IMG/VR virus record: IMGVR_UViG_3300022562_000870
Coordinates: 4,184-68,183 of that record
Strand: one strand, 5' to 3'
DNA from: a virus
Lineage: Duplodnaviria > Heunggongvirae > Uroviricota > Caudoviricetes
DNA length: 64,000 nucleotides
Shown: piece by piece, positions 11,884 to 60,744 of the stretch
Numbering within the stretch: the first letter of the stretch is position 1
How the letters are laid out: the number at the start of each line of letters is the position of its first letter
Notes under the pieces: model-generated
Told to the model about the DNA's origin: nothing
Databases searched by the model: none
What the model saw: only the letters and a program-made list of their open reading frames with translations
Translations under genes and position numbers: made by a program

Positions 11884-12276
11884 ATGAATGATACTAAACA
11901 AGTTATAGTTCTTAGAAAAGATTTAAACATGCGCAAAGGTAAAATGGTTGCCCAAGGTGCACATGCTTCTATGAAAGCTATATTTGACCGTGGTAGAATA
12001 CGTAATCCAGACAGCAACGTGTTTGTTGTCGAAATGACGCCCGAAATGAAAGCGTGGATGATGGGAATTTTCACAAAAGTTTGCGTGAGTGTTAACAGCG
12101 AAGAAGAACTTCTAAATATACACAAACAAGCAGAAGATGCCGGATTAATTTGTAGTTTGATACAAGATGCTGGCTTAACGGAATTTGATGGTGTACCAAC
12201 ATATACGGCTGTTGCAGTTGGTCCTGCGAAACGCGAAGATGTAGATAAAATAACTGGACATTTAAAGTTATTATAA
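11884..12276 (+). CDS. peptidyl-tRNA hydrolase, PTH2 family
   Basis: VLRKDLNMRKGKMVAQGAHAS matches the Pth2 signature (VVRxDLxMGKGKxAAQCxHAA). Size about 130 aa. Confidence 0.7.
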   Translation: MNDTKQVIVLRKDLNMRKGKMVAQGAHASMKAIFDRGRIRNPDSNVFVVEMTPEMKAWMMGIFTKVCVSVNSEEELLNIHKQAEDAGLICSLIQDAGLTEFDGVPTYTAVAVGPAKREDVDKITGHLKLL

Positions 12277-16407: not shown

Positions 16408-17121
16408 ATGATAAAGCCTATAATGCTTTGGATAACATCACGCAGTCGCTCTTCAATGGTATCAAGGATTTTTGCTGAACATGGAATTTTTTGGGGTAAT
16501 ACGCAAAGACAATCGGCGGGATATGATACTTATGAAAATCAAACTATAAAAAGCTTGCAACATAAATTTAAACCTAAATGGTGGGTAGATCATAGAAGTC
16601 CTATCCGCGCACCAGAAAGCGTATTTTTAGAATTTCAACGCGCATTAGAAAAAGTAATACCCGAAAATGTTATATGGTCTATGAAAACTGGAGTGGAATA
16701 TTTTCCTGCGTATGAAAGTTTGGAACCATATAATATATTCATTAAACGAAAACCTGAAGATGTTGCAAAATCGTTGATTGAAAAAAACTTTAGTGCTGCA
16801 TTTAATAGAACTAAAGATTCTGTTAATAAAACCAAAGCATTAACTAATGCAATTAGAGGCATATCACTCACCGAAATTCATGCGCTATTAGATAAAACCA
16901 ACCACGAATTAAATAAAAAATACAATTCGTTAATAGCGGAGGCGTTGGAAACTATAACAGCTAGATATGAATATATGGATATTATTCAAGCCAAACATGG
17001 TGGTATATTTGTAGATACTGATAAGATTGTTAATGGTGATTTTTCCGAAATTAAAATGGCCATGGAATATTGTGGTATAGAATACAATGAAGAATTAACA
17101 AAAAAGGCTATTGTAAAATGA
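16408..17121 (+). CDS. hypothetical protein (first gene of the sugar-modification cluster)
   Basis: ORF with ATGA overlap to the downstream gene. Confidence 0.4.
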   Translation: MIKPIMLWITSRSRSSMVSRIFAEHGIFWGNTQRQSAGYDTYENQTIKSLQHKFKPKWWVDHRSPIRAPESVFLEFQRALEKVIPENVIWSMKTGVEYFPAYESLEPYNIFIKRKPEDVAKSLIEKNFSAAFNRTKDSVNKTKALTNAIRGISLTEIHALLDKTNHELNKKYNSLIAEALETITARYEYMDIIQAKHGGIFVDTDKIVNGDFSEIKMAMEYCGIEYNEELTKKAIVK

Positions 17122-25092: not shown

Positions 25093-25324
25093 TATGATAC
25101 CTACTAACTGTGCAACCTGTGGAAAACCTGTGTTTTTACCAGAAAATCCAGACGAGGAATGGCGGGATTCGCGAACCACCAAATACTGGTCTTTCGACGA
25201 AAATGGTGAAAAAAGACCCTATTGTGATGCTGCCTGTGGCCTAAAAGATTACAAAAAATAACTTGTCATTAGATTATTTTTATGCTATATTATAAAAGCT
25301 AATAATATAATAAGGATAATAATA

Positions 25325-34660: not shown

Positions 34661-35869
34661 ATGAATGAATATCAGCAAAAAATATATGACGATTTAATGC
34701 AACTTGTTGAAAACAATGAAGCATTTTACTACGTTGACCAACACATATTTGATGGTTTATCATCATCTATTGATACAGTATATCGTATTTTCTTATATCG
34801 ATTAGCTTCTTACACAGACTTTCTGAATCCATCGGCGCTGGAATGTCGTGGTATTACTTTTGAAGTAACTGAAGAAGGTAAGAATGCACAACCAATTCGC
34901 TTGGCGGCAATGCCAATGGAAAAGTTTTTCAATTTACATGAAAATCCATTCACTATGGATTTAGATCTTTCCGCTGTTGAAAGTGTAATGTTGAAAGCTG
35001 ATGGTAGTTTAATATCGGCTTTCAAACACAATGGTTATCTACGGCTTAAGACGAAAGGTTCGTTGTGGTCTGACCAAGCAATGGCGGCAATGGGGTGGTT
35101 ACACGATCATGAAAATCAACCACTACTTAATGAAATAACATTATTAGTTAACCATGGCTTTACCGTCAATATGGAATGGTGTGCGCCAGATAATCGTATT
35201 GTTATCAATTACCAAGAACCAAAGTTAGTAATTCTTAATATCCGCAATAATGAAGATGGTAGTTATGTTCGCTATCCTGATCGCGTAGATGAAGGTTTTG
35301 TTGAAATACACAAACATTGGATAGAATTGGAACAACCAAAAGATATCAATGAATTTGTTAAGCAAATACCTTCTATGAAAGATGTGGAAGGTTATGTTGT
35401 ATGCATCAGTTCTGGTCAACCTCATGCCAAAACTCAATTGGCTAACGGTGATTGTTGCATTGGTATCCAGCATGTTAAAATAAAGACTGAATGGTACTTG
35501 ACACAACATCGTGCAAAAGATTCTATCGATAGCCCACGGCGTTTGTTCGAAGCTGTCTTGGAAGAAGCTACTGATGACTTAAAATCTTTATTCCATGATA
35601 ATCCATATGTCTTGAATAAAATCGACGAAATGGAAAAATTCGTTGAAGTACGATACAACCACTTGGTTGATACTGTCGAACGTTTCTATGAACGCAATAA
35701 AGGATTAGAACGCAAAGAATATGCTATTCTTGGACAACAGGAAATGGATCGTATGCAGTTCGGTTTAGCTATGATGAAGTATTTGGATAAGCCTGTTTCT
35801 TACAAAGATGCTATGAAAAAGGCTTGGAAACATTATGGCCTTAAAGATGCAGTAAAGGAAGAAGAATGA
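34661..35869 (+). CDS. RNA ligase, T4 Rnl1-like
   Basis: Nucleotidyltransferase motif I in LKADGSLI (KxDGSL as at T4 Rnl1 K99). Size about 400 aa. Confidence 0.6.
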   Translation: MNEYQQKIYDDLMQLVENNEAFYYVDQHIFDGLSSSIDTVYRIFLYRLASYTDFLNPSALECRGITFEVTEEGKNAQPIRLAAMPMEKFFNLHENPFTMDLDLSAVESVMLKADGSLISAFKHNGYLRLKTKGSLWSDQAMAAMGWLHDHENQPLLNEITLLVNHGFTVNMEWCAPDNRIVINYQEPKLVILNIRNNEDGSYVRYPDRVDEGFVEIHKHWIELEQPKDINEFVKQIPSMKDVEGYVVCISSGQPHAKTQLANGDCCIGIQHVKIKTEWYLTQHRAKDSIDSPRRLFEAVLEEATDDLKSLFHDNPYVLNKIDEMEKFVEVRYNHLVDTVERFYERNKGLERKEYAILGQQEMDRMQFGLAMMKYLDKPVSYKDAMKKAWKHYGLKDAVKEEE

Positions 35870-43403: not shown

Positions 43404-43432
43404 TTGACACCTTATCAAAGACATGTTATAAT
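43404..43432 (+). promoter_or_regulatory. sigma70-like promoter (TTGACA-17-TATAAT) facing the tRNA array
   Basis: Consensus -35 and -10 with a 17-nt spacer, about 250 nt upstream of the first tRNA of the array. Confidence 0.55.
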
Positions 43433-43685
43433 ATTGGAATGGCGCGAAAAGCGTCGTAGATTTAAAGAAATGCAGAAGTAGTTAGCGGAACGCTTAGTGA
43501 CTAACCACTTTAAAGAAATACGGGTAGTAGAATGTTGATCAGGTTGAAATTCCTGTCCGAACACCTACTACGGAACTTACCTACCAGTAGCGATGGGATG
43601 GTACCAGCCACGCGATTAGAACCGTAAAATCGGTCACGCTGAAAGATAGGAAACGGTATAATATCGTTTAAAAAGTGTATATTAG

Positions 43686-43771
43686 CTGCGTGTAGCCGGG
43701 TAACTTGGTAGCCCCCCTCGCTTGGAACGAGGTGTCGAAAGACCTTGCTGGTTCGAATCCAGTTGCGCAGA
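43686..43771 (+). tRNA. tRNA, atypical type-II-like; anticodon loop CTTGGAA (UGG, Pro?); CCA encoded
   Basis: Acceptor CTGCGTG/TGCGCAG. Anticodon stem CCTCG/CGAGG. Long variable hairpin GTCGAAAGAC. T-arm GCTGG-TTCGAAT-CCAGT. D-arm not resolved. Confidence 0.45.
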
Positions 43772-43787
43772 CCAATATACATTTAAA

Positions 43788-43870
43788 TGGGAAGTAGGAA
43801 AATTGGCAACCCCACCTGACTTTGAATCAGGCGTCGAAAGACATTGTGCGTTCGAGTCGCACCTTCCCAG
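43788..43870 (+). tRNA. tRNA, atypical type-II-like; anticodon loop CTTTGAA (UUG, Gln?); CCA encoded
   Basis: Acceptor TGGGAAG/CTTCCCA. Anticodon stem CCTGA/TCAGG. Variable hairpin GTCGAAAGAC. T-arm GTGCG-TTCGAGT-CGCAC. Confidence 0.45.
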
Positions 43871-43884
43871 CCAATTAAAAATAT

Positions 43885-43967
43885 GGATCAGATGGGGAAA
43901 CTGGTATCCCTACCCGGCTGTAACCCGGGCGCTTCTAGCACTGTAGGTTCGAATCCTACCTGATCCA
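43885..43967 (+). tRNA. tRNA-Tyr (GUA), type II; CCA encoded
   Basis: Acceptor GGATCAG/CTGATCC. D-stem GGGG/TCCC. Anticodon stem CCCGG/CCGGG with loop CTGTAAC. Long variable arm. Confidence 0.65.
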
Positions 43968-43976
43968 CCAAATTAT

Positions 43977-44057
43977 GTAGCGGCTGAACATTGGCGAGTT
44001 CACCTGCCTGTAAAGCAGATGCCTATGGCTGTGGTGGTTCGACTCCACCTCGCTGCA
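43977..44057 (+). tRNA. tRNA-Tyr (GUA), second type II copy; CCA encoded
   Basis: Acceptor GTAGCGG/TCGCTGC. D-stem GAAC/GTTC. Anticodon loop CTGTAAA. T-arm GGTGG-TTCGACT-CCACC. Confidence 0.55.
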
Positions 44058-44111
44058 CCAAATTTTGTCTGACCTAACACATCGATCACTGTTAGGATTT
44101 ACACAAGTAGT

Positions 44112-44183
44112 AACCATGTGATGTACTTGGAAGCATGGCCCCCTCTAAAGGGGTTTGTATAGGTTCGAATCCTATTGTGGTAA
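44112..44183 (+). tRNA. suppressor-type tRNA with anticodon CUA (reads UAG); no CCA encoded
   Basis: - U8 present.
- D-stem ATGT/GCAT with loop ACTTGGAA.
- Anticodon stem GCCCC/GGGGT with loop CTCTAAA.
- 4-nt variable loop.
- T-arm ATAGG-TTCGAAT-CCTAT.
- Acceptor AACCATG/TGTGGTA with an A1/A72 mismatch. Confidence 0.6.
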
Positions 44184-44246
44184 AAAATGTATTAGTTGGT
44201 ATTCATTCGCGATGAAAAATCCAACCGACAAAATTCAAATTCTATG

Positions 44247-44323
44247 GATTTCTCCCTTGGAAGGCGGCTGACCTGTGCGGTCGGTAATACTAGTTTAGAA
44301 GGGTTCAATTCCCTTGGAAATCC
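44247..44323 (+). tRNA. tRNA-like element with a non-canonical core (no anticodon arm found); CCA encoded
   Basis: Perfect acceptor GATTTCT/GGAAATC and T-arm AAGGG-TTCAATT-CCCTT. The middle forms CTGACC-TGTGC-GGTCGG, a hairpin with a 5-nt loop. Confidence 0.35.
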
Positions 44324-44334
44324 CCAAATAATAT

Positions 44335-44415
44335 ACAGTGGTATGCAAATGGTTAAAGCAGCTGGGCCTTCAACCCAGTCCGTAAGGTTTGCGAGTTCGA
44401 ATCTCGTCCGCTGTA
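44335..44415 (+). tRNA. type II tRNA with ambiguous anticodon loop CCTTCAA (UUC or UCA); CCA encoded
   Basis: Acceptor ACAGTGG/CCGCTGT. 3-bp D-stem. Anticodon stem (G)CTGGG/CCCAG(T), resembling the selC GCTGGA-CTTCAAA-TCCAGT arm. Variable hairpin CCGTAAGG. Confidence 0.45.
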
Positions 44416-44468
44416 CCAACTTTCAACCATACATTGACATTGAAATCACAGTGTGATATAATAATTGC

Positions 44469-44924
44469 ATGAAATTATGTGGAAAATGTGGAAAAACAAA
44501 ACCGCTAACTGAATTTACCTTTAAAAAAGGTAAACATAAACCACAATCATATTGTAAGGACTGTAACCGCGAATATCAACGTGAACATTATCATAGGAAT
44601 AAAGAAAAATATTTTGATGATCGTAAACAGCGAAGAAAAGATAGTAAGGAAAAGGCGATTAAACTCCTTCTTGAATATGTTAAGGATGGATGTGTTGATT
44701 GTGGTGAAAAAGATTTCGAAGTTTTAGATTTTGACCATATTGAACAGAGCAATAAAGAATATACCATATCTTATATGATAAACAATGGTTTTGGTGTTGA
44801 AAAAATCAAAAACGAACTTGAAAAATGTCGAGTATTGTGTAGTAACTGTCATCGTCGAAGAACGGCGAAGCAATTAGGATGGTATTCAGAATATTTACAT
44901 TTACTTGAAACTACATCGCTGTAG
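44469..44924 (+). CDS. HNH endonuclease-like zinc-ribbon protein
   Basis: CGKCGK...CKDC, then VDCGEKDFEVLDFDHIEQ and CSNCHRRRT. Its 3' end overlaps the start of a tRNA. Confidence 0.5.
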   Translation: MKLCGKCGKTKPLTEFTFKKGKHKPQSYCKDCNREYQREHYHRNKEKYFDDRKQRRKDSKEKAIKLLLEYVKDGCVDCGEKDFEVLDFDHIEQSNKEYTISYMINNGFGVEKIKNELEKCRVLCSNCHRRRTAKQLGWYSEYLHLLETTSL

Positions 44925-44989
44925 TTTAACTGGAATAGAACGCAAGCCTTTCAAGCTTGAAAATGCGGGTTCGAGTCCCGTCAGCGATA
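44915..44989 (+). tRNA. tRNA-Glu (UUC); CCA encoded
   Basis: Acceptor ATCGCTG/CAGCGAT. D-stem GTTT/GAAC. Anticodon stem CAAGC/GCTTG with loop CTTTCAA. T-arm GCGGG-TTCGAGT-CCCGT. Confidence 0.65.
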
Positions 44990-45007
44990 CCAATAATGGA
45001 AGTGAAC

Positions 45008-45442
45008 ATGAAAAAAGTTAAAACTGCGATAAGTGAAATACAACGCCATGAAGAAATAAGTCTTTTTGGGTTTTTTGATAAACACCTTTTTGGTAATGGG
45101 TATTATTTTGAGTTCGTACGAGAAGAAATAGAAGGAAGGGCCGATAGAAAAATATTCATATTTTGGTGGTGGTGGGGCAGGAATCGCGGGGTTAAAACAA
45201 CTATTCTTGATTGGCTTGACCCGTTTTCAATAAACATAAGAAGAAATATCACCGAATCTGTTAAAAAGATACGGCTGAAATTTGAAAATAGTGGAATGAA
45301 TCATGATGAACAACGGTACTGGTCAAAAATTCTTTTACACGCGTATCATGACGCGCAAAACTTTTTGTTCGGTTGGTCATTATTTTTAAAAATAAGTTAT
45401 GGTTCTATAGCTTTATCAACTTTCGTATTTTCTTTCTTTTAA
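45008..45442 (+). CDS. hypothetical protein
   Basis: ATG refined to lie downstream of the tRNA. Confidence 0.35.
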   Translation: MKKVKTAISEIQRHEEISLFGFFDKHLFGNGYYFEFVREEIEGRADRKIFIFWWWWGRNRGVKTTILDWLDPFSINIRRNITESVKKIRLKFENSGMNHDEQRYWSKILLHAYHDAQNFLFGWSLFLKISYGSIALSTFVFSFF

Positions 45443-45462
45443 TAAGAATTCAACAAAATCTA

Positions 45463-45547
45463 TTGCGCGGTATACAAATGGTTAACGTGATGGGCCTCAT
45501 AAGCCTATGCTGAAAAGCTTTGCGGCGTTCGAATCCCGCCTGCGCTA
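45463..45547 (+). tRNA. tRNA-like, type-II-like; anticodon loop CTCATAA (CAU); boundaries approximate
   Basis: Anticodon stem TGGGC/GCCTA. Variable hairpin GCTGAAAAGC. 3' end CTGCGCT-A-CCA. The T-stem and 5' acceptor strand are imperfect. Confidence 0.35.
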
Positions 45548-45566
45548 CCAATTAAAGGTGAACATC

Positions 45567-45767
45567 ATGAGAAGATGTAAACAATGTAATAAAAGTATTG
45601 AACATAAGCATAAGAATGCTAAGTTCTGTAAACAAAAATGTAAAGATAAATATCATAACGTGAATAATCCACGTGGATATTTTGCACACTTGGCTGGTGA
45701 AAGTAACAACTTGCACGACTATGAAGATGCACATATCTTCAGTAGTGAAGCGTTGGGTCAAGAATGA
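45567..45767 (+). CDS. small zinc-ribbon protein
   Basis: RBS AAAGGTG upstream. CKQCNK...CKQKCKDKYH. Confidence 0.4.
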   Translation: MRRCKQCNKSIEHKHKNAKFCKQKCKDKYHNVNNPRGYFAHLAGESNNLHDYEDAHIFSSEALGQE

Positions 45768-45773
45768 AATAAT

Positions 45774-45846
45774 GCGGGTATAGTGTTTAACGGCAGCATA
45801 ATGTCCTTCCAAGTCAAAGGTGGGGGTTCGAATCCCCCTATCCGCT
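45774..45846 (+). tRNA. tRNA-like element (73 nt) without a resolvable D or anticodon stem; CCA encoded
   Basis: Acceptor GCGGGTA/TATCCGC and T-arm GGGGG-TTCGAAT-CCCCC are perfect. An exhaustive manual search found no anticodon stem of 5 bp with a 7-nt loop. Confidence 0.35.
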
Positions 45847-45947
45847 CCAAAATTTGTAGTCCAGTGCTATGCGGGAAAGAAGGTGCCTAAGCGATCATAG
45901 ACATGCACATCCTTTACTACAAATTTCTTATTATAAAATTTCTTATT

Positions 45948-46039
45948 GTGTTAGTGGCGAAATTGGCAGACGCTGCTGGTGAACCAGACGTGGGTAAACT
46001 GGCGATGACGATCTTGCAGGTTCGAGTCCTGTCTAATAT
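45948..46039 (+). tRNA. type-II-like tRNA with a Leu-like D-arm; anticodon unresolved; no CCA
   Basis: Acceptor GTGTTAG/CTAATAT. D-arm GCG-AAATTGGCAGA-CGC. T-arm GCAGG-TTCGAGT-CCTGT. The central 45 nt contain a 4-nt-loop hairpin. Confidence 0.35.
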
Positions 46040-46111
46040 GATAAGTTTTGGCAGTGGGGCAGATTGAATATGCGGCTGATTGTCTATCAGCATTAAGAGG
46101 GTTTGATTCCC
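46040..46111 (+). tRNA. tRNA, anticodon loop TTGTCTA (GUC, Asp?); CCA encoded
   Basis: Acceptor GGCAGTG/CACTGTC. Anticodon stem GCTGA/TCAGC. T-arm GAGGG-TTTGATT-CCCTT. D-stem poor. Confidence 0.45.
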
Positions 46112-46119
46112 TTCACTGT

Positions 46120-46187
46120 CGCCAAATATACTATTGTAGTTTAACAAAAATACCTGGAGTAGTCTGGGAGATGTGGGTGAAAATCCT
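46120..46187 (+). tRNA. tRNA-like element with an atypical T-loop (TGAAAAT) and unresolved anticodon; CCA encoded
   Basis: Perfect acceptor ACTATTG/CAATAGT. T-stem GTGGG/CCTGC formed with G-U pairs. Confidence 0.3.
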
Positions 46188-46382
46188 GCCAATAGTTCCA
46201 AATCAAATTAATCAACTAAGCACGCAAGTGTAGAACCACTAATCATCGTACCTCGCTCATACCTTGGGAAAATTAGTTGGTCTACCAAAGGCCAAGAGAA
46301 GGCAATTGGTTGTGGAGTCGAAGCCCATAGTTGATTTAACGGGGCGCAGGGCAGTAGTGTCCGTAAGTCGCAACGAATTCTA

Positions 46383-46456
46383 TGGTGACTGTAGCTTAAT
46401 TGGTAAAGCTCCAGACTGTGAATCTGAAAGATGGGGGTTCAAGTCCCCTCAGTCAC
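46383..46456 (+). tRNA. tRNA-His (GUG) with G-1; CCA encoded
   Basis: G-1 opposite C73. Acceptor GTGACTG/CAGTCAC. D-stem GCTT/AAGC. Anticodon loop CTGTGAA. T-arm GGGGG-TTCAAGT-CCCCT. Confidence 0.7.
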
Positions 46457-46465
46457 CCCAAATAA

Positions 46466-46543
46466 TGGAACCTTAGCTGAGTGGGAAATGGCCTAGCGTC
46501 TGGTTGAAGCCCAGAAGACATCCGTTCGAATCGGATAGGTTCT
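46466..46543 (+). tRNA. tRNA-Phe (GAA), 78 nt with an extended D region; CCA encoded
   Basis: Acceptor GGAACCT/AGGTTCT. Anticodon stem TCTGG/CCAGA with loop TTGAAGC. T-arm ATCCG-TTCGAAT-CGGAT. Confidence 0.55.
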
Positions 46544-46551
46544 ACCAATTA

Positions 46552-46624
46552 TGGAACTCTGGTGTAGTAGGTCTGCACACTTGTCTGAAGAACAGGGGGT
46601 CACGGTTCGAATCCGTGGGGTTCC
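46552..46624 (+). tRNA. tRNA with anticodon GAA (second Phe-type); CCA encoded
   Basis: Acceptor GGAACTC/GGGTTCC. D-stem GTGT/GCAC. Anticodon stem CTTGT/ACAGG with loop CTGAAGA. T-arm CACGG-TTCGAAT-CCGTG. Confidence 0.55.
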
Positions 46625-46639
46625 ACCAAAAAGAATAAT

Positions 46640-46713
46640 GCCCACTTAGCTTAACTGGACAAAGCACTTCACTACGAATGAAGGGGATGCAGGTTCGAAT
46701 CCTGTGGTGGGTG
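46640..46713 (+). tRNA. tRNA-Arg (ACG); CCA encoded
   Basis: Acceptor GCCCACT/GGTGGGT. Anticodon stem CTTCA/TGAAG with loop CTACGAA. T-arm GCAGG-TTCGAAT-CCTGT. Confidence 0.65.
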
Positions 46714-46720
46714 CCAATAT

Positions 46721-46793
46721 GGACTGTGCTCTGGGTTAAGCGGCTGTGGCTCCAAACTACGGCGTCTGCGGGGTTCGATTCCTTGACAGTCTG
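46721..46793 (+). tRNA. tRNA-Trp (CCA); CCA encoded
   Basis: Acceptor GGACTGT/ACAGTCT. Anticodon stem TGTGG/CTACG with loop CTCCAAA. T-arm CGGGG-TTCGATT-CCTTG. Confidence 0.6.
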
Positions 46794-49187
46794 CCAAATT
46801 CATATTATATTATCGAAATGGCTTCTTTAAGATTGCAATCATTTCTAGTACCCACGCTTAAGGTTGGCTTAGGTGGAAATTACTACGTTATTTGTGATGT
46901 AAAAGAACACCTTATCGAAATTTGTAACACAATTAGCAAAAGTGTCAATTCCATTTACTACAATAAAAAATATTGTTGTTGGGTAATTAGGGTAAAAAAC
47001 AAAGCTACCAAGCGAAAATTGTTGACATTAATGCCTATTAATACTACAATGTGTTATGCAAAAGAATAGGCACATAAAAACCATACCAGAAAAATATGGT
47101 ATTTGCGACATTGAATTGGAAGCAACCAAATATTTCAAGGATCATTATAACCGCGATAATTACGATGCCGAAAAAATGTTTGAAGGAATTCCATATATCG
47201 GCTATATGCGCATAGACACAAACGATCCATTGCTTCAACATTGGGGGTATAGTGACGATGATATTATAAATGCAAAAATACTCTCTGTTTCTGAAACGGA
47301 CGTACGTTTTTGTTATTACGATTCACATCATGATCGTCTAGCGTGGGCAACTAAAAAACATGAAAATTTTCATGTAGAAGGAAATGTTTTAAGGAAAGCA
47401 AATGATTAGCAATGACGACATTGATGACCTTCAAGTAAGCTTAGGTTTCTGCTGTTGTGGCAATCCAGAAGATAATTTAAAATATGTTCGCAATGGTTTG
47501 CATCATATCAATGAAATGCACAACATGGATGATGATAAAATGTCTTTTGAAGAATGGACTGAAAAAGGATTAGAAATTTTTGGTAGTAGAAAAGCGGAAT
47601 ATTTTTTTTATTATTGGGCAGACAAGGAAGGGCTGACCGAACATGGTGGTAGTGTGCCGGGATGGTTAGACACAAAAGGCCACGAACTTTTAGAAAATCT
47701 TAATATCATATTAGAGGATAAATGAAATGCCAAAAGGTCGTAAGATAACAAAAGTAGGTAACTACATTAAACGCCAAAACGTACAACGCAAGTTTCGTAT
47801 TGGTACGCGCAAGGCCGGAAAGCCAGCACATGAAATGACAACAGATGATTTGAAGGCCGTACTTGAACGCGAAAGTGATAAACGTTATCACAACAAAGTA
47901 CGTGCTGTTTTAGCATTGCGTGGAGTCGCTGCTTGAATATAGTGAACGTATTGAATAAACTCGCGGATGCACTTAGCGGTTTATCTTTCTATGAAAATAA
48001 CAACACCAGTAGAGGTATTGTGCACGATGAAGTATCTAAAATTTTAGACTTGTGGCTTAATGCTGGTACAATTTATGATTACGCGATAATCTGCGACGAT
48101 AGTAATAATAGTTATTATCTCAGCAATATCAATGTAGATGTTTTACTTAAAACACACATAAATGATGGATTTGTTTATGTGCCTATACGAAAACATTTAA
48201 ACTCGTAATATTACAAGAAACATTAACATGAAACATAGAATAGAAATTTGCAAGAATGGTGAATATAGTAAATTAGCATATATGGCACCAGTAAATGAAG
48301 ATGGTGAAATAGATTCTGGTTACAGAATTGCTGGTCCTAAAGGATGGGGCGGTACATCTACGATTGCAACAATAGACATTAGTGAAGAAAACTTGATAAA
48401 ATATATCAAGGAGTATGCACCAAATGTTCTTAAGGAATTGAGAAGTCGAAAGAAGAAAACAGTATGAGAATTGATATAATAAAAAAGGCCATATACGGAA
48501 TGATCAATGAAAGAATTAATATTACTGCGCTTGAAGAAAAGGATTCTACGGCTGATATTAAACAACAAATAGCAATGCATAGGGATAATTATAATTTCTT
48601 TGAAAAGGCGTTGGCAGAAGAGCTTCAATCAATTTCTGATAGGTTTGACGAACTTGATCATCGTACATCTAAGTTAAGAACATTGCGGTAGGATGGACAG
48701 GTTTCCAAAAGAAGGCGATCCTGTAAGGATTACTATGCAAATTGATAAAGACCTTGAAGCTAATAACGACAAGGTTGGAAAGGTTTTATGGCGTGATGGT
48801 GAATACATCATGGTAGAATTAGACAAAAGTAAAGTTCAAGTCGAATGTTACCTTTGTGAATTAGAGGAAGTATAAAATATGACAACTAAAGTAACAATAG
48901 AAGCTTGTTGTGCTGAAGATGAAGCTGTAAAAATTATAATAGGTGATAAGCTTGTAAGTGATACTTATGTTTTACAAAACGGTGATACTGAAACTTATTA
49001 TATTCATGGTGAAGTATCTTTACTAGTTAAAGAATTTAAAACAGATTAACGACGCGATAACGTATCCACCAGTAGGAGCATAAAGAATATCAAACCGTTC
49101 ATGATAAGGCTGATTCGCGATACTCACAGCTGTAAGTGTAATGTTTTGGGAACCATGTAATTATACTTGCCGTCGTTATTTAAATTA

Positions 49188-49269
49188 TTGCAAGTGTGTG
49201 GCGGTGGCATCTCCATGGGATGCAGTAGGGGTCGCTCCCCCACCATAGGTTCGAGTCCTATGCTTGCAA
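49188..49269 (+). tRNA. tRNA-like, type-II-like with a short D region; anticodon loop TCCATGG (CAU?); CCA encoded
   Basis: Acceptor TGCAAGT/GCTTGCA. Stem GCATC/GATGC. Variable hairpin GGGG-TCGCT-CCCC. T-arm ATAGG-TTCGAGT-CCTAT. Confidence 0.4.
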
Positions 49270-49278
49270 CCAAATATT

Positions 49279-49352
49279 CGGAGTGTAGCTCAGTTTGGCA
49301 GAGCGCGTGCTTTGGGAGCATGAGGTCCAAGGTTCAAATCCTTGTACTCCGA
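49279..49352 (+). tRNA. tRNA-Pro (UGG); CCA encoded
   Basis: Acceptor CGGAGTG/TACTCCG. D-stem GCTC/GAGC. Anticodon stem CGTGC/GCATG with loop TTTGGGA. T-arm CAAGG-TTCAAAT-CCTTG. Confidence 0.65.
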
Positions 49353-49671
49353 CCAATTAAAGGTGAAATATGATAGTTAACATTAATGAACTTCTTGAAC
49401 TGAAAGAAAAATTGAATGAAATTAATTCAATCCCGCTTGAAGAAATTGAATTTTATGAAAATGGTGAACTGGTGGAAATTCCCGAAGAACTATTAGAACA
49501 ATGGGATTACATTGGGCTAAACAATGTTGACTTTATAACCACTGGTTACTATAAAGAAAATCCCAACAAAGGATGGTTACAGAAACAAGCCGATGCAGCA
49601 CGCCTAACAGTTGAATCATGGCCAGAAGGTAAACAAGAAGCTATGAAGAATGCAATACGGAATAAAGACTG

Positions 49672-50128: not shown

Positions 50129-50704
50129 ATGATTAGTTACGGTTTGCTTGCAGAAGCATTGGAATATTATCAAGACCAAGGTTATGAACTGGTTGACGTT
50201 CCTTGGACTGTTTCCAAACAATCGATGAATATAACCGCAGGCAAAAGCATCGATTTAGAAAAAAATAAATACATAGACGACTACTTGGTTGGAAGCGCAG
50301 AGCAATCTTTCTTGCACATGATCCGAGGAGGTGAACTTTCCGAAGGAAGATACTGCGCTATAACCCCGTGTTTTAGAAGCAACGATCCTGAAGATGAACT
50401 TCATCAGAAATATTTTATGAAAGTTGAACTTATTTCATACAATAAAAAATGGTGGCAATGGGTATCGGATATGGAATTATTAATCTATGATGCGCGACAG
50501 TTCTTCGAACAATGGGTTCCTACGACAGTAGTTAAAACGAAGGATGAACGTAGCGATGAAAGTTATGATATTGAATGTAATGGAATTGAATTAGGTTCAT
50601 ATGGTATTAGACACTTCGAAAATATTGATTGGGTTTATGGTACAGGATTGGCCGAACCTAGATTTTCAAATGTATTGAATAGAGAATTTTATGCCAACAG
50701 TTAA
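50129..50704 (+). CDS. minimal class II aminoacyl-tRNA synthetase core, SerRS-like (amino acid:carrier-protein ligase-like)
   Basis: - ITPCFRSNDPEDELHQKYFMKVE matches SerRS motif 2 (TPCFRSEA...HQFDKVE).
- YELVDVPW is motif-1-like.
- C-terminal IELGSYGIR...YGTGLAEPR is motif-3-like.
- Only 191 aa, with no N-terminal tRNA-binding arm. Confidence 0.55.
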   Translation: MISYGLLAEALEYYQDQGYELVDVPWTVSKQSMNITAGKSIDLEKNKYIDDYLVGSAEQSFLHMIRGGELSEGRYCAITPCFRSNDPEDELHQKYFMKVELISYNKKWWQWVSDMELLIYDARQFFEQWVPTTVVKTKDERSDESYDIECNGIELGSYGIRHFENIDWVYGTGLAEPRFSNVLNREFYANS

Positions 50705-53892: not shown

Positions 53893-53972
53893 CGTCGGTG
53901 GTTAATGTAAATCGGTACAGCTACAAGGCTCAAACCCTTGACTTTTGTGGGTTCGAATCCCACCCGGCGTAC
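53893..53972 (+). tRNA. tRNA-Leu (CAA); CCA encoded
   Basis: Paralogous to the 53804 tRNA. Anticodon stem CAAGG/CCTTG with loop CTCAAAC. Confidence 0.6.
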
Positions 53973-54270
53973 CAAATTTAAAGGTGAATTATGTTATTGC
54001 ATTTTGTATTAGATTCTGGTAAAATTGTTACATTGGGTACTTTGTTACCCGTTAGTAAGGATATTTTAAATCTATATGTTAAAAAATATCCGCGACACTG
54101 GATAACAGTATGACAACACCAGAAGAAGTAGATAAGCTACAAGAATTGGCTAAAGAGACTCTTATAGAAATGATTGAAAATAAGAATCATTTTATTACAC
54201 ACGTAAGATACAACTGGCTTGATGGTGATAAAACAAGTGTTACTTTCGAATATATTGATAAGGAATAACT

Positions 54271-59718: not shown

Positions 59719-60744
59719 ATGAACAAGCTATTAACACGTGATGATTTTCGCAATAGCGTCTTTGAACGTGATCGTCACACGTGTGTATTTTGTAAAAACC
59801 CTGCCGTAGATGCGCATCATATTATAGAACGACGCCTGTGGCCTGATGGTGGCTACTATTTAAATAACGGTGCTTCGGTTTGTGAAGAACATCACCTTGC
59901 TTGTGAAATGACAACAATGTCTGTTGAAGAAGTTCGTGAAGCATGTGGCATTGAAAAACCTATTATACCGCCACATTTATATGATGACCAAATTTACGAT
60001 AAATGGGGTAACATAGTATTACCTAATGGACAGCGCCTTAAAGGTGAATTGTTCTTCGATGAAAGTGTTCAAAAGATACTTGAAAAGGGTGGTGTATTAC
60101 CACTATTCACTGGTTACGTAAAATACCCAAGAACATATCACCTTCCTTGGTCACAAGGATTACACGATGATGATCGAATGATGAACAATGTAGATGCCTT
60201 CATTGGGCAGCGCGTAATCGTAACCGAAAAACTTGATGGTGAAAATACTACACTGTATTATGATCATAATCATGCGCGTTCTATCGATAGTGGTGGACAT
60301 GCTAGTCGTGATTGGGTTAAAAATTTCTGGTCACAATTTAATTTTGAAATTCCTGAAGATTGGCGCGTATGTGGTGAAAATATGTATGCGGAACATTCTA
60401 TACCTTATAACGACCTAAAATCTTATTTTTATGGATTCTCCATATGGAATGAAAAGAACATATGTTTATCGTGGGATGAAACCTTAGAATGGTTTAGGTT
60501 ATTACATCCTAAATTAGTCCATGTTCCAGTTTTATACGATGGTATATTCGATAAAAAGGTTATCGTTGACTTATGGAATGATTCGATGTATGATACTTGT
60601 GAAGGGTACGTTATGCGCGTAGCTGATTCTTTTTCTATGAATGAATTTAGGTTCAAAGTGGGAAAGTTTGTTCGCAAAGACCATATCAGAACTACACCGC
60701 ATTGGATGCACGGCAAACCCATAACAGTTAATAAATTGAAATAA
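59719..60744 (+). CDS. HNH nuclease domain fused to an ATP-dependent RNA/DNA ligase-like nucleotidyltransferase
   Basis: - N-terminus: HTCVFCKNPAVDAHHIIERR...CEEHH (HNH).
- C-terminus: motif I VIVTEKLDGEN (KxDGxN), motif IV EGYVMRV, motif V FKVGKFVRK. Confidence 0.55.
   Translation: MNKLLTRDDFRNSVFERDRHTCVFCKNPAVDAHHIIERRLWPDGGYYLNNGASVCEEHHLACEMTTMSVEEVREACGIEKPIIPPHLYDDQIYDKWGNIVLPNGQRLKGELFFDESVQKILEKGGVLPLFTGYVKYPRTYHLPWSQGLHDDDRMMNNVDAFIGQRVIVTEKLDGENTTLYYDHNHARSIDSGGHASRDWVKNFWSQFNFEIPEDWRVCGENMYAEHSIPYNDLKSYFYGFSIWNEKNICLSWDETLEWFRLLHPKLVHVPVLYDGIFDKKVIVDLWNDSMYDTCEGYVMRVADSFSMNEFRFKVGKFVRKDHIRTTPHWMHGKPITVNKLK

Follow-up and report, generated by a model that had tools for sequence, protein, structure and literature searches.

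Class I tRNAs with a tRNA-Tyr-type variable arm in the tRNA island of a T4-like phage and in other phages

A long variable arm is the mark of the leucine, serine and selenocysteine (Sec) tRNAs and, in bacteria, of tRNA-Tyr, and it is key to the recognition of these class II tRNAs. Here we describe a tRNA island in a 64,000-nt stretch of the IMG/VR record IMGVR_UViG_3300022562_000870 (the window, in which all unprefixed positions are counted), where such an arm sits on tRNAs of isotypes that normally have none: a tRNA-Pro(UGG), a tRNA-Gln(UUG), a tRNA-Glu(UUC) and an initiator-like CAU tRNA, hereafter Pro-L, Gln-L, Glu-L and CAU-L (Table 1). The arm has the geometry of the tRNA-Tyr arm, and the pattern extends over at least 13 isotypes in many lineages of phages, and cellular genomes almost lack it. 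The phenomenon is apparently broad, phage-specific and undescribed: in open-access full text we found no published description of long-arm class I phage tRNAs, the nearest concepts being allo-tRNAs (PMC5389517) and the nev-tRNAs of nematodes.

The window is AT-rich (36% G+C) and phage-like, encodes a T4 Gp23-like open reading frame (ORF) and contains at least 28 tRNA genes by ARAGORN, all on the plus strand; the source of the island is a large AT-rich T4-like phage. tRNAs were called with ARAGORN, at its default setting or relaxed (-ps85), and with Infernal and the Rfam tRNA model RF00005 (gathering score 29 bits). Minimum-free-energy folding by itself was not significant (z between -0.1 and -1.65), and because these scores were unremarkable we drew support from the tRNA models and from comparison with relatives. 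A protein search with the Gp23-like ORF found no relatives; they were reached instead through homologues of the 191-residue ORF at 50129-50704. The three contigs carrying its closest homologues (L188, L189 and L190) proved syntenic with the window, with the shared order Gp23-like ORF, tRNA island, 191-residue ORF, zinc-ribbon ORF and downstream RNA ligase, the ligase being followed by IMPDH in L188.

ARAGORN and Infernal agree on the anticodons UGG, UUG, UUC and CAU, none of them a Leu, Ser, Tyr or Sec anticodon, and the variable regions of 11-14 nt, each with a 2-3-bp stem and a GNRA loop, have the length and the stem-loop of class II tRNAs. An earlier interpretation made from the letters of this DNA alone (the sequence-only reading) had proposed long variable arms on class I isotypes, and this architecture is confirmed in the window by both programs. 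They place the anticodon loops of Pro-L, Gln-L and CAU-L where that reading had drawn them, which disposes of ordinary type II Leu, Ser or Tyr tRNAs with misplaced loops. Glu-L is a fifth extra-arm case, added to the four elements it had listed (Pro-L, Gln-L, CAU-L and the one at 49189, described below). Covariance-model scoring, which it had proposed as a check, came out unevenly: Gln-L and Glu-L pass and CAU-L barely does (29.6 bits), whereas Pro-L (25.3 bits) and the 49189 element do not. The alignment with tRNAs of related phages that it had also proposed revealed compensatory pairs in Glu-L, Gln-L and the 49189 element.

Table 1. Features of the window that bear on the extra-arm tRNAs and their surroundings.
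Feature	Coordinates	Strand	Evidence or remark
tRNA-Pro(UGG) with extra arm (Pro-L)	43686..43774	+	ARAGORN default, 89 nt, loop CUUGGAA
Pro-L variable-arm hairpin GUC-GAAA-GAC	43734..43743	+	ARAGORN fold
tRNA-Gln(UUG) with extra arm (Gln-L)	43788..43873	+	ARAGORN default, 86 nt; Rfam 46.8 bits
Gln-L variable-arm hairpin GUC-GAAA-GAC	43833..43842	+	ARAGORN fold
tRNA-Glu(UUC) with extra arm (Glu-L)	44335..44418	+	ARAGORN default, 84 nt; Rfam 49.8 bits
CAU tRNA with extra arm, initiator-like (CAU-L)	45464..45550	+	Rfam 29.6 bits; ARAGORN at -ps85 only
Conserved tRNA-like RNA without D stem	49189..49272	+	Homologues with compensatory changes; 84 nt
Canonical tRNA-Pro(UGG)	49279..49355	+	Rfam 63.4 bits; G37
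Canonical tRNA-Glu(UUC)	44915..44992	+	ARAGORN, Rfam
Two ordinary class II tRNA-Tyr(GUA) genes, next after Gln-L	43885..44060	+	3-bp variable arms, Tyr geometry
Class II aminoacyl-tRNA synthetase (aaRS)-like catalytic core, 191 residues	50129..50704	+	Probably the 'SerRS-like protein' of the sequence-only reading
Sigma-70-type promoter, upstream of tRNA array	43404..43432	+	TTGACA-17-TATAAT with TG, 12/12 hexamer matches
Structured leader RNA, between promoter and first tRNA	43440..43685	+	84% identity to L188 over 226 nt
T4 Rnl1-type RNA ligase (tRNA-repair context)	34661..35869	+	RNA_lig_T4_1 92 bits, T4_Rnl1_C 75 bits
Second RNA ligase	59719..60744	+	PF09414 107 bits

The array runs in the order Pro-L, Gln-L, Tyr, Tyr, a CUA suppressor-type gene and Glu-L, with spacers of 6-13 nt among the first four genes, and its extra-arm tRNAs have encoded CCA ends. 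Pro-L combines C1-G72, A73, A37 and the encoded CCA with a 14-nt variable region, U-GUC-GAAA-GAC-CUU. By sequence it has the E. coli ProRS identity set (C1-G72, A73, G35, G36), with A37 replacing G37, and C1, G72, A73 and CCA are common to all nine proline tRNAs aligned, Pro-L among them. The C1-G72 pair is required by ProRS and disfavoured by bacterial TyrRS. Its T stem and D-loop core are shared with the second proline gene (Pro2) of L189 and L190, in which the variable loop has 5 nt, and Pro-L looks like this short-arm Pro2 with insertions. A37 is found throughout this Pro(UGG) lineage (43686-43774, L189:5933-6010, L190:6586-6663 and L016:697-784), and the canonical copy at 49279, which the sequence-only reading had rightly identified, carries G37; in bacterial tRNA-Pro, G37 is methylated to m1G37.

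Gln-L has the loop CUUUGAA and the variable region C-GUC-GAAA-GAC-AUU. With U1-A72, G2-C71, G3-C70 and G73, the E. coli GlnRS identity set, together with G10, U35 and G36, it would be expected to suit GlnRS. A homologue in another contig (L039:3349-3435) has the same D region and variable arm with A1-U72 and U73 instead, and between the two genes six pairs have compensatory changes, distributed over the acceptor, anticodon and T stems. IMG/VR searches with D-arm patterns of Gln-L recovered L039 only; two metagenome matches to these patterns contained no tRNA and were discarded as chance. The hairpin that had been noticed in two adjacent genes, GTCGAAAGAC, is the one shared by Pro-L and Gln-L. 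It occurs three times in the window against 0.07 expected, and the third copy (25189-25198, minus strand) was rejected as an element, as it lies inside a small ORF and is coding sequence matching by chance.

Glu-L has a tRNA-Tyr-like body and the variable region CC-GUAA-GG-UUU, and in all four related phages it is followed by a canonical tRNA-Glu gene. Across its three alignable phage copies, 69 of 69 cells are paired, with six compensatory pairs spread over all four cloverleaf helices, a count that none of 500 shuffles reached. Searches with patterns of Glu-L and of the 49189 element found no relative other than the L188 contig again. CAU-L has U1.U72, a 7-bp acceptor stem, a 3-bp D stem with A11-U24, a 6-bp anticodon stem, the loop CUCAUAA, the variable arm GCU-GAAA-AGC and A73. 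Positions 1 and 72 thus form no Watson-Crick pair, as in initiators and as in the annotated tRNA-fMet of T5, which likewise has U1.U72, and the three initiator G-C pairs appear as G29-C41, G30-C40 and C31-G39, the third flipped. Among long-arm CAU tRNAs in viral loci, 9 of 10 have the 1x72 mismatch and G30-C40/G31-C39; in sequence, CAU-L resembles an initiator, and so do the CAU tRNAs with a hairpin from other phages.

The arm itself is of the tyrosine type. Over the long-arm tRNAs of class I isotypes in phage loci, 31 of 51 unique sequences have 0-1 unpaired base, 3 bp, a 4-nt loop and 3 unpaired bases, and the loop is GAAA in 34 of the 51. tRNA-Tyr arms of phages and cells consist of 0-1 unpaired base, 3 bp, a 3-5-nt loop and 3 unpaired bases; in leucine tRNAs that share the core, 2 unpaired bases follow a stem of 4 bp, and in serine tRNAs 0-2 follow a stem that mostly has 5-6 bp (5-7 bp within the same loci). 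The verified arm of E. coli tRNA-Tyr, C-GUC-AUC-GAC-UUC, has a GUC/GAC stem identical to that of Pro-L and Gln-L. Bacterial tRNA-Tyr and the extra-arm tRNAs of the window thus share one variable-arm geometry, and Glu-L and CAU-L additionally share with the tRNA-Tyr genes in our data a 3-bp D stem, an 11-nt D loop of the AAGUGGCUAAA type and a 6-bp anticodon stem, so that these two look like remodelled tRNA-Tyr bodies. Unlike tRNA-Tyr, which has G1-C72/A73 and the anticodon GUA, the window tRNAs have acceptor ends of proline, glutamine or initiator-like type and the anticodons UGG, UUG, UUC and CAU.

The discriminator base, in turn, follows the anticodon. Long-arm Cys tRNAs have U73 in 5 of 5 cases, Gly U73 in 3 of 3 and Asn G73 in 10 of 11; His has C, and Pro, Glu, Ile and Lys have A. 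Across the long-arm Cys, Gly, Asn, His, Glu, Pro, Ile and Met tRNAs compared, the discriminator tracks the isotype. Of the window's extra-arm tRNAs, Pro-L, Glu-L and CAU-L carry A73; only Gln-L carries G73, which is a glutamine element too. The sequence-only reading had suggested that the hairpin might serve Ser identity through a SerRS-like phage factor. This part of it does not hold up: tRNA-Ser identity goes with an arm stem of at least about 5 bp and G73, the arms found here have 3-bp stems of Tyr-type geometry with cognate acceptor ends, and the putative factor, the ORF at 50129-50704, is a bare catalytic core. It scores 19.6 bits with Pfam tRNA-synt_2, below threshold, and 20 bits with serS against a cut-off of 301.65, serS positions 179-290 alone aligning; motif 2 (FRDD/E) and motif 3 (GTGLAEPR) are conserved. 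Its predicted structure (pLDDT 95) matches the catalytic domains of PylRS and SerRS only, at a TM score of about 0.7, and it lacks the N-terminal helical arm with which SerRS binds the variable arm. Roughly 1190 homologues exist. The ORF occurs in 278 GenBank phage records, which variously name the protein SerRS, HisRS or hypothetical; these come from Escherichia, Acinetobacter and Caulobacter phages, and the hairpin-bearing tRNA-Asn described next belongs mostly to Salmonella T5-like phages.

The idea that the hairpin is a common module fared better, as it recurs on many isotypes in many phages. We scanned IMG/VR with the motif GTCGAAAGAC-N7-GTTCGARTC and obtained 66 loci, with 61 matches inside tRNA genes. 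Fifty of the 61 fall on class I isotypes (Asn 29, Met/initiator 9, Cys 4, Gln 3, Gly 2, and one each of Pro, Arg and Ile). The same motif in one genome per prokaryotic species gave class I isotypes in only 5 of the 111 tRNA matches listed; the other 106 were Ser, Leu or Tyr, and three of the five exceptions lie in tRNA-dense, phage-like contigs. The difference in class I share is strong (50/61 versus 5/111 matches listed; Fisher p = 1e-26), with the reservation that both samples were retrieved by one fixed motif and that the viral set is redundant, 29 of its matches being Asn genes of T5-like phages. Other hairpins occur as well, many of them GNRA-capped: among the other class I isotype tRNAs in the viral loci, 18 of 364 have a variable region of at least 10 nt (Thr, His, Lys, Ile, Gly, Glu, Pro, Asn, Val and Met).

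The T5-like tRNA-Asn(GUU) is 83 nt long and present in 291 GenBank phage records, annotated as 'tRNA-Asn' and at least 95% identical in 274 of them; the records include the E. coli K-12 phages IrisVonRoten and TrudiGerster. Like Pro-L and Gln-L it carries the GUC-GAAA-GAC hairpin in the same place, with G73 and an encoded CCA, and it differs from the window tRNAs in isotype and in having a full 4-bp D stem. We found no publication commenting on its extra arm. Annotation pipelines mislabel or miss several of the extra-arm tRNAs, which also provide natural designs for putting hairpins into class I tRNAs.

Each isotype has its own hairpin flanks, and these reappear in phage contigs that are unrelated to one another, which suggests that whole gene families move between phages and that the extra-arm genes belong to class I isotype families circulating among them. 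Long-arm genes adjoin tyrosine genes both in the window and in L016, and neighbouring genes of the tRNA-Tyr type were probably the source of the families, through exchange or through remodelling. As far as sequence comparison goes, both routes, insertion into a Pro2-like gene and remodelling of a tRNA-Tyr, have support.

What are these tRNAs for? The anticodons of Pro-L, Gln-L and Glu-L read the phage's commonest codons in the respective families: GAA makes up 874 of 921 Glu codons (95%, and 7% of all codons), CAA 284 of 359 Gln codons (79%) and CCA 249 of 466 Pro codons (53%). The reading that we favour, at what we regard as an even chance of being right, is that the extra-arm tRNAs are real phage isoacceptors, cognately charged and used in translation, whose Tyr-type arm is kept because it is unlike the host's. 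Host RNase P would process them, cognate host synthetases would charge them, and they would serve translation beside the canonical copies. More tentatively, the arm may be retained for making the phage isoacceptor structurally unlike that of the host. Enzymes that contact the anticodon-stem/variable-loop face, such as host nucleases, toxins or a phage tRNA-depleting factor, would then treat such a tRNA differently, and the general machinery that accepts class II tRNAs would still use it.

The variable arm is a known point of contest between phages and tRNA-cleaving defences. Retron-Eco7 PtuAB and Septu cut E. coli tRNA-Tyr inside the variable arm, and phage tRNA-Tyr resists them through a different arm (PMC12673091, PMC13096335); the cut of PARIS AriB at 40/41 adjoins the variable arm (PMC12409363). 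In favour of the same reading, the phage also encodes an Rnl1-type and a second RNA ligase. The resistant phage tRNA-Tyr resembles our case in being a phage tRNA with a varied variable arm, and differs in being a native class II tRNA with an altered arm, whereas in the window the arm sits on isotypes normally without one.

Several observations weigh against the favoured reading. In the closest syntenic relatives, Pro2 and Gln(UUG) at the same array position are short-armed, so the arm is dispensable there. The individual genes have flaws: Pro-L matches the Rfam model only locally and scores below the gathering threshold because three extra bases (GCC) lie between the acceptor stem and its otherwise good D arm (GGGU/GCCC), the D stem of Gln-L has two standard pairs only, the T stem of CAU-L has a bulged C, and the window copy of Glu-L has C33 in place of U33. 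E. coli GluRS recognizes a 4-nt variable loop and an augmented D helix, and without these two features the charging of Glu-L is doubtful. We know of no nuclease against which an extra arm has been shown to protect a class I isotype. The published PARIS experiments, which we considered as a direct link, do not test the extra arm, since T5's own tRNA-Asn and tRNA-Thr(UGU) are short-armed, and the long-arm T5-like tRNA-Asn keeps the host-like UAAUCC at the AriB site (text of PMC12409363). The single motif and the redundancy behind the phage-cell comparison count on the same side.

A wider proposal, which we advance only tentatively and would not bet on, is that the Tyr-type arm on class I isotypes is a general phage counter-defence, a structural 'self' mark against tRNA-targeting nucleases and toxins. 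If it were true, the mark would leave aminoacylation and decoding intact and block or divert immune nucleases and toxins. The textbook rule that confines class II to Leu, Ser, Tyr and Sec would then fail systematically in phages. Initiator tRNAs would be one of the exceptions, and the same toolkit would take in initiator-like RNAs that lack a D arm, such as 49189-49272. A protective or self-marking arm would also be a new route in the tRNA-cleavage arms race, next to those around PrrC, PARIS, Retron-Eco7, Septu and VapC, and would explain phage tRNA copies that seem redundant.

Of the alternatives, the most durable, unlikely as we take it to be, is that the arms are a neutral by-product of churn in the tRNA island through duplication, homing-endonuclease recombination and anticodon switching, the Tyr-type arm being carried along or tolerated, with some copies (Pro-L, CAU-L and the window's Glu-L) decaying and the arm giving no advantage. 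The island does contain degenerate elements (44247-44326, 45947-46041 and 46467-46547, a Phe gene with an insertion) and an HNH endonuclease ORF, canonical Pro and Glu copies exist, individual copies have defects, and the relatives have short arms at the same array positions. Neutrality sits poorly, however, with a pair of Glu-L and canonical Glu kept in four phages with compensatory changes, with isotype-specific hairpin flanks that recur across unrelated contigs, and with a long-arm tRNA-Asn kept in 291 records at 95% identity or more in 274, and the strong asymmetry between phages and cells would still need explaining.

We consider it improbable that the RNAs act outside translation, as decoys or competitive inhibitors of nucleases that recognize long-arm tRNAs, or as regulatory RNAs. 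According to one suggestion, phage tRNAs that are over-expressed may compete for AriB and so inhibit it (PMC12409363); the tRNA-Tyr arm on which PtuAB and Septu act has the same GUC/GAC stem (PMC12673091, PMC13096335), and the 49189 element has no D stem and has C33. A pure decoy, on the other hand, needs neither anticodons for common codons nor isotype-specific acceptor ends nor an encoded CCA.

Least probable of all, and very unlikely in our judgement, is non-cognate charging by TyrRS, LeuRS, SerRS or the phage's minimal class II enzyme, the direction in which the sequence-only reading had pointed. Pro, Gln, Glu or Met codons would then be translated with a different amino acid, as may happen with nematode nev-tRNAs and some allo-tRNAs. 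In its favour, arm geometry and stem are those of tRNA-Tyr; Glu-L and CAU-L have A73, the tRNA-Tyr-like D loop and the 6-bp anticodon stem; U35, which is a major TyrRS element, is retained in Glu-L; and the phage encodes a class II catalytic core 800 nt downstream. These points are outweighed by discriminators that follow the anticodon isotype and are not uniformly A73 or G73, by C1-G72 in Pro-L and by G73 with the full GlnRS acceptor set in Gln-L, by an arm too short for SerRS, by a mini-enzyme that lacks a tRNA-binding appendage and whose distribution does not match that of the hairpin tRNAs, and by the very high cost of missense at GAA, 7% of codons. The nev-tRNAs reportedly are charged with leucine. 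They too carry a variable arm on class I anticodons, but are eukaryotic (Hamashima et al., as cited in PMC5389517), and they differ from the window tRNAs, whose identity elements point to cognate charging. The allo-tRNAs, some of which occur in phage-associated clusters, divide the acceptor/T branch 8/4 or 9/3; their long D stem carries a tetraloop, and their identity is of Ser type with G73/U73 (Mukai et al. 2017, PMC5389517); Pro-L, Gln-L and Glu-L, unlike these, are 7/5, as is CAU-L with a bulge, and have cognate discriminators.

The element at 49189-49272 is of another kind. Neither default ARAGORN nor the Rfam tRNA model calls it, yet the stem, the UCCAUGG loop and the hairpin that the sequence-only reading had drawn are in the sequence and are conserved with compensatory changes in four other contigs. 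It consists of an acceptor stem, a 7-nt GG-containing linker and a helix GGUG/CACC in the place of the D arm (an 11-nt D region), a 5-bp stem GCAUC/GAUGC with the loop UCCAUGG, a second hairpin GGGG-UCGCU-CCCC, a T arm, the acceptor strand and ACCA. Homologues in L188, L196 and L197-199 lie in the same place upstream of the 191-residue ORF and conserve the loop as NCCAUGG. The family has at least seven compensatory pairs, two in the acceptor stem, one or two in the T stem, three in the CAU-bearing hairpin and others in the helix GGUG/CACC, which reads GAUG/CAUC in L188. This conserved fold marks the element as a conserved tRNA-like RNA and not a standard tRNA. Its 1-72 pair is C.A or A.A in relatives and U-A in the window, and the initiator features, namely the three G-C pairs 29-41/30-40/31-39 and A11-U24, are both absent. 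The 'tRNA-Pro(GGG)' fold proposed by relaxed ARAGORN (-ps85) was rejected, as the compensatory changes support the other fold, and so was a tmRNA, as ARAGORN makes no tmRNA call and the 84 nt contain no G3.U70. In architecture the element resembles the 'tRNA-like stable RNAs' of T5 and the tRNA-like domain of tmRNA, with an acceptor stem, a T arm and ACCA in common, a D arm reduced to a short GG-containing linker and a location in a phage tRNA region; it differs from them in having a 7-nt CAU-containing loop and a second hairpin. Just upstream, the noncoding stretch 49045-49185 is about 75% identical to L188 over its first 106 nt, and its ends are complementary (AACGACG ... CGUCGUU), suggesting another structured RNA.

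Further features of the island deserve mention. The leader RNA ahead of the array has a consensus fold across four phages with 39 pairs, 15 of them with compensatory changes, and no match in Rfam. Another noncoding stretch, 46125-46384, between tRNA-Asp and tRNA-His, is 72% identical to L188 over 186 nt, is partly conserved in L189 and L190 and likewise has no Rfam match. The HNH endonuclease-like ORF (44469-44924) stands behind a second perfect promoter (44434-44462); homing endonucleases are also found in the tRNA regions of T5 and T4. The gene at 44111-44184 encodes an amber-suppressor-type tRNA with the anticodon CUA, which is ARAGORN's sole ground for the label 'Pyl'. Its anticodon stem has 6 bp and its variable loop 3 nt, the first pair is mismatched, and CCA is not encoded. 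Of the stops in 47 ORFs checked, TAG is used least often (5, against 12 TGA and 30 TAA), and the PylRS/SerRS-like catalytic core is encoded 6 kb downstream of this tRNA.

Two of the degenerate tRNA-like elements are seen with relaxed ARAGORN only: 44247-44326, which ends in C73-CCA and has G at -1 (a His-like end), and 45947-46041 (95 nt), whose D arm is of Leu type and whose variable region is long. The 81-nt 'tRNA-Thr(GGU)' that ARAGORN reports at 46467-46547 was dismissed as a further long-arm case, being a homologue of a tRNA-Phe(GAA) (L188:8297-8371) in which an insertion of about 6 nt separates the D stem from the anticodon stem; it adjoins the canonical tRNA-Phe at 46553. A tRNA-Asp(GUC) at 46050-46124, with the T loop UUUGAUU, is missed by default ARAGORN, scores 39.5 bits with Rfam and is orthologous to the Asp genes of L189 and L190. 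Finally, the reverse oddity exists too: leucine tRNAs (anticodons UAA, UAG and CAA, with A73) of 77-80 nt with short variable loops of class I length occur in the window (53895-53974) and in other contigs (L188:11479-11556, 11912-11989 and 16519-16597; L039:664-740; L202:4125-4201), and such short-loop genes make up 26 of the 50 unique tRNA-Leu in phage loci, T5-like E. coli phages included.

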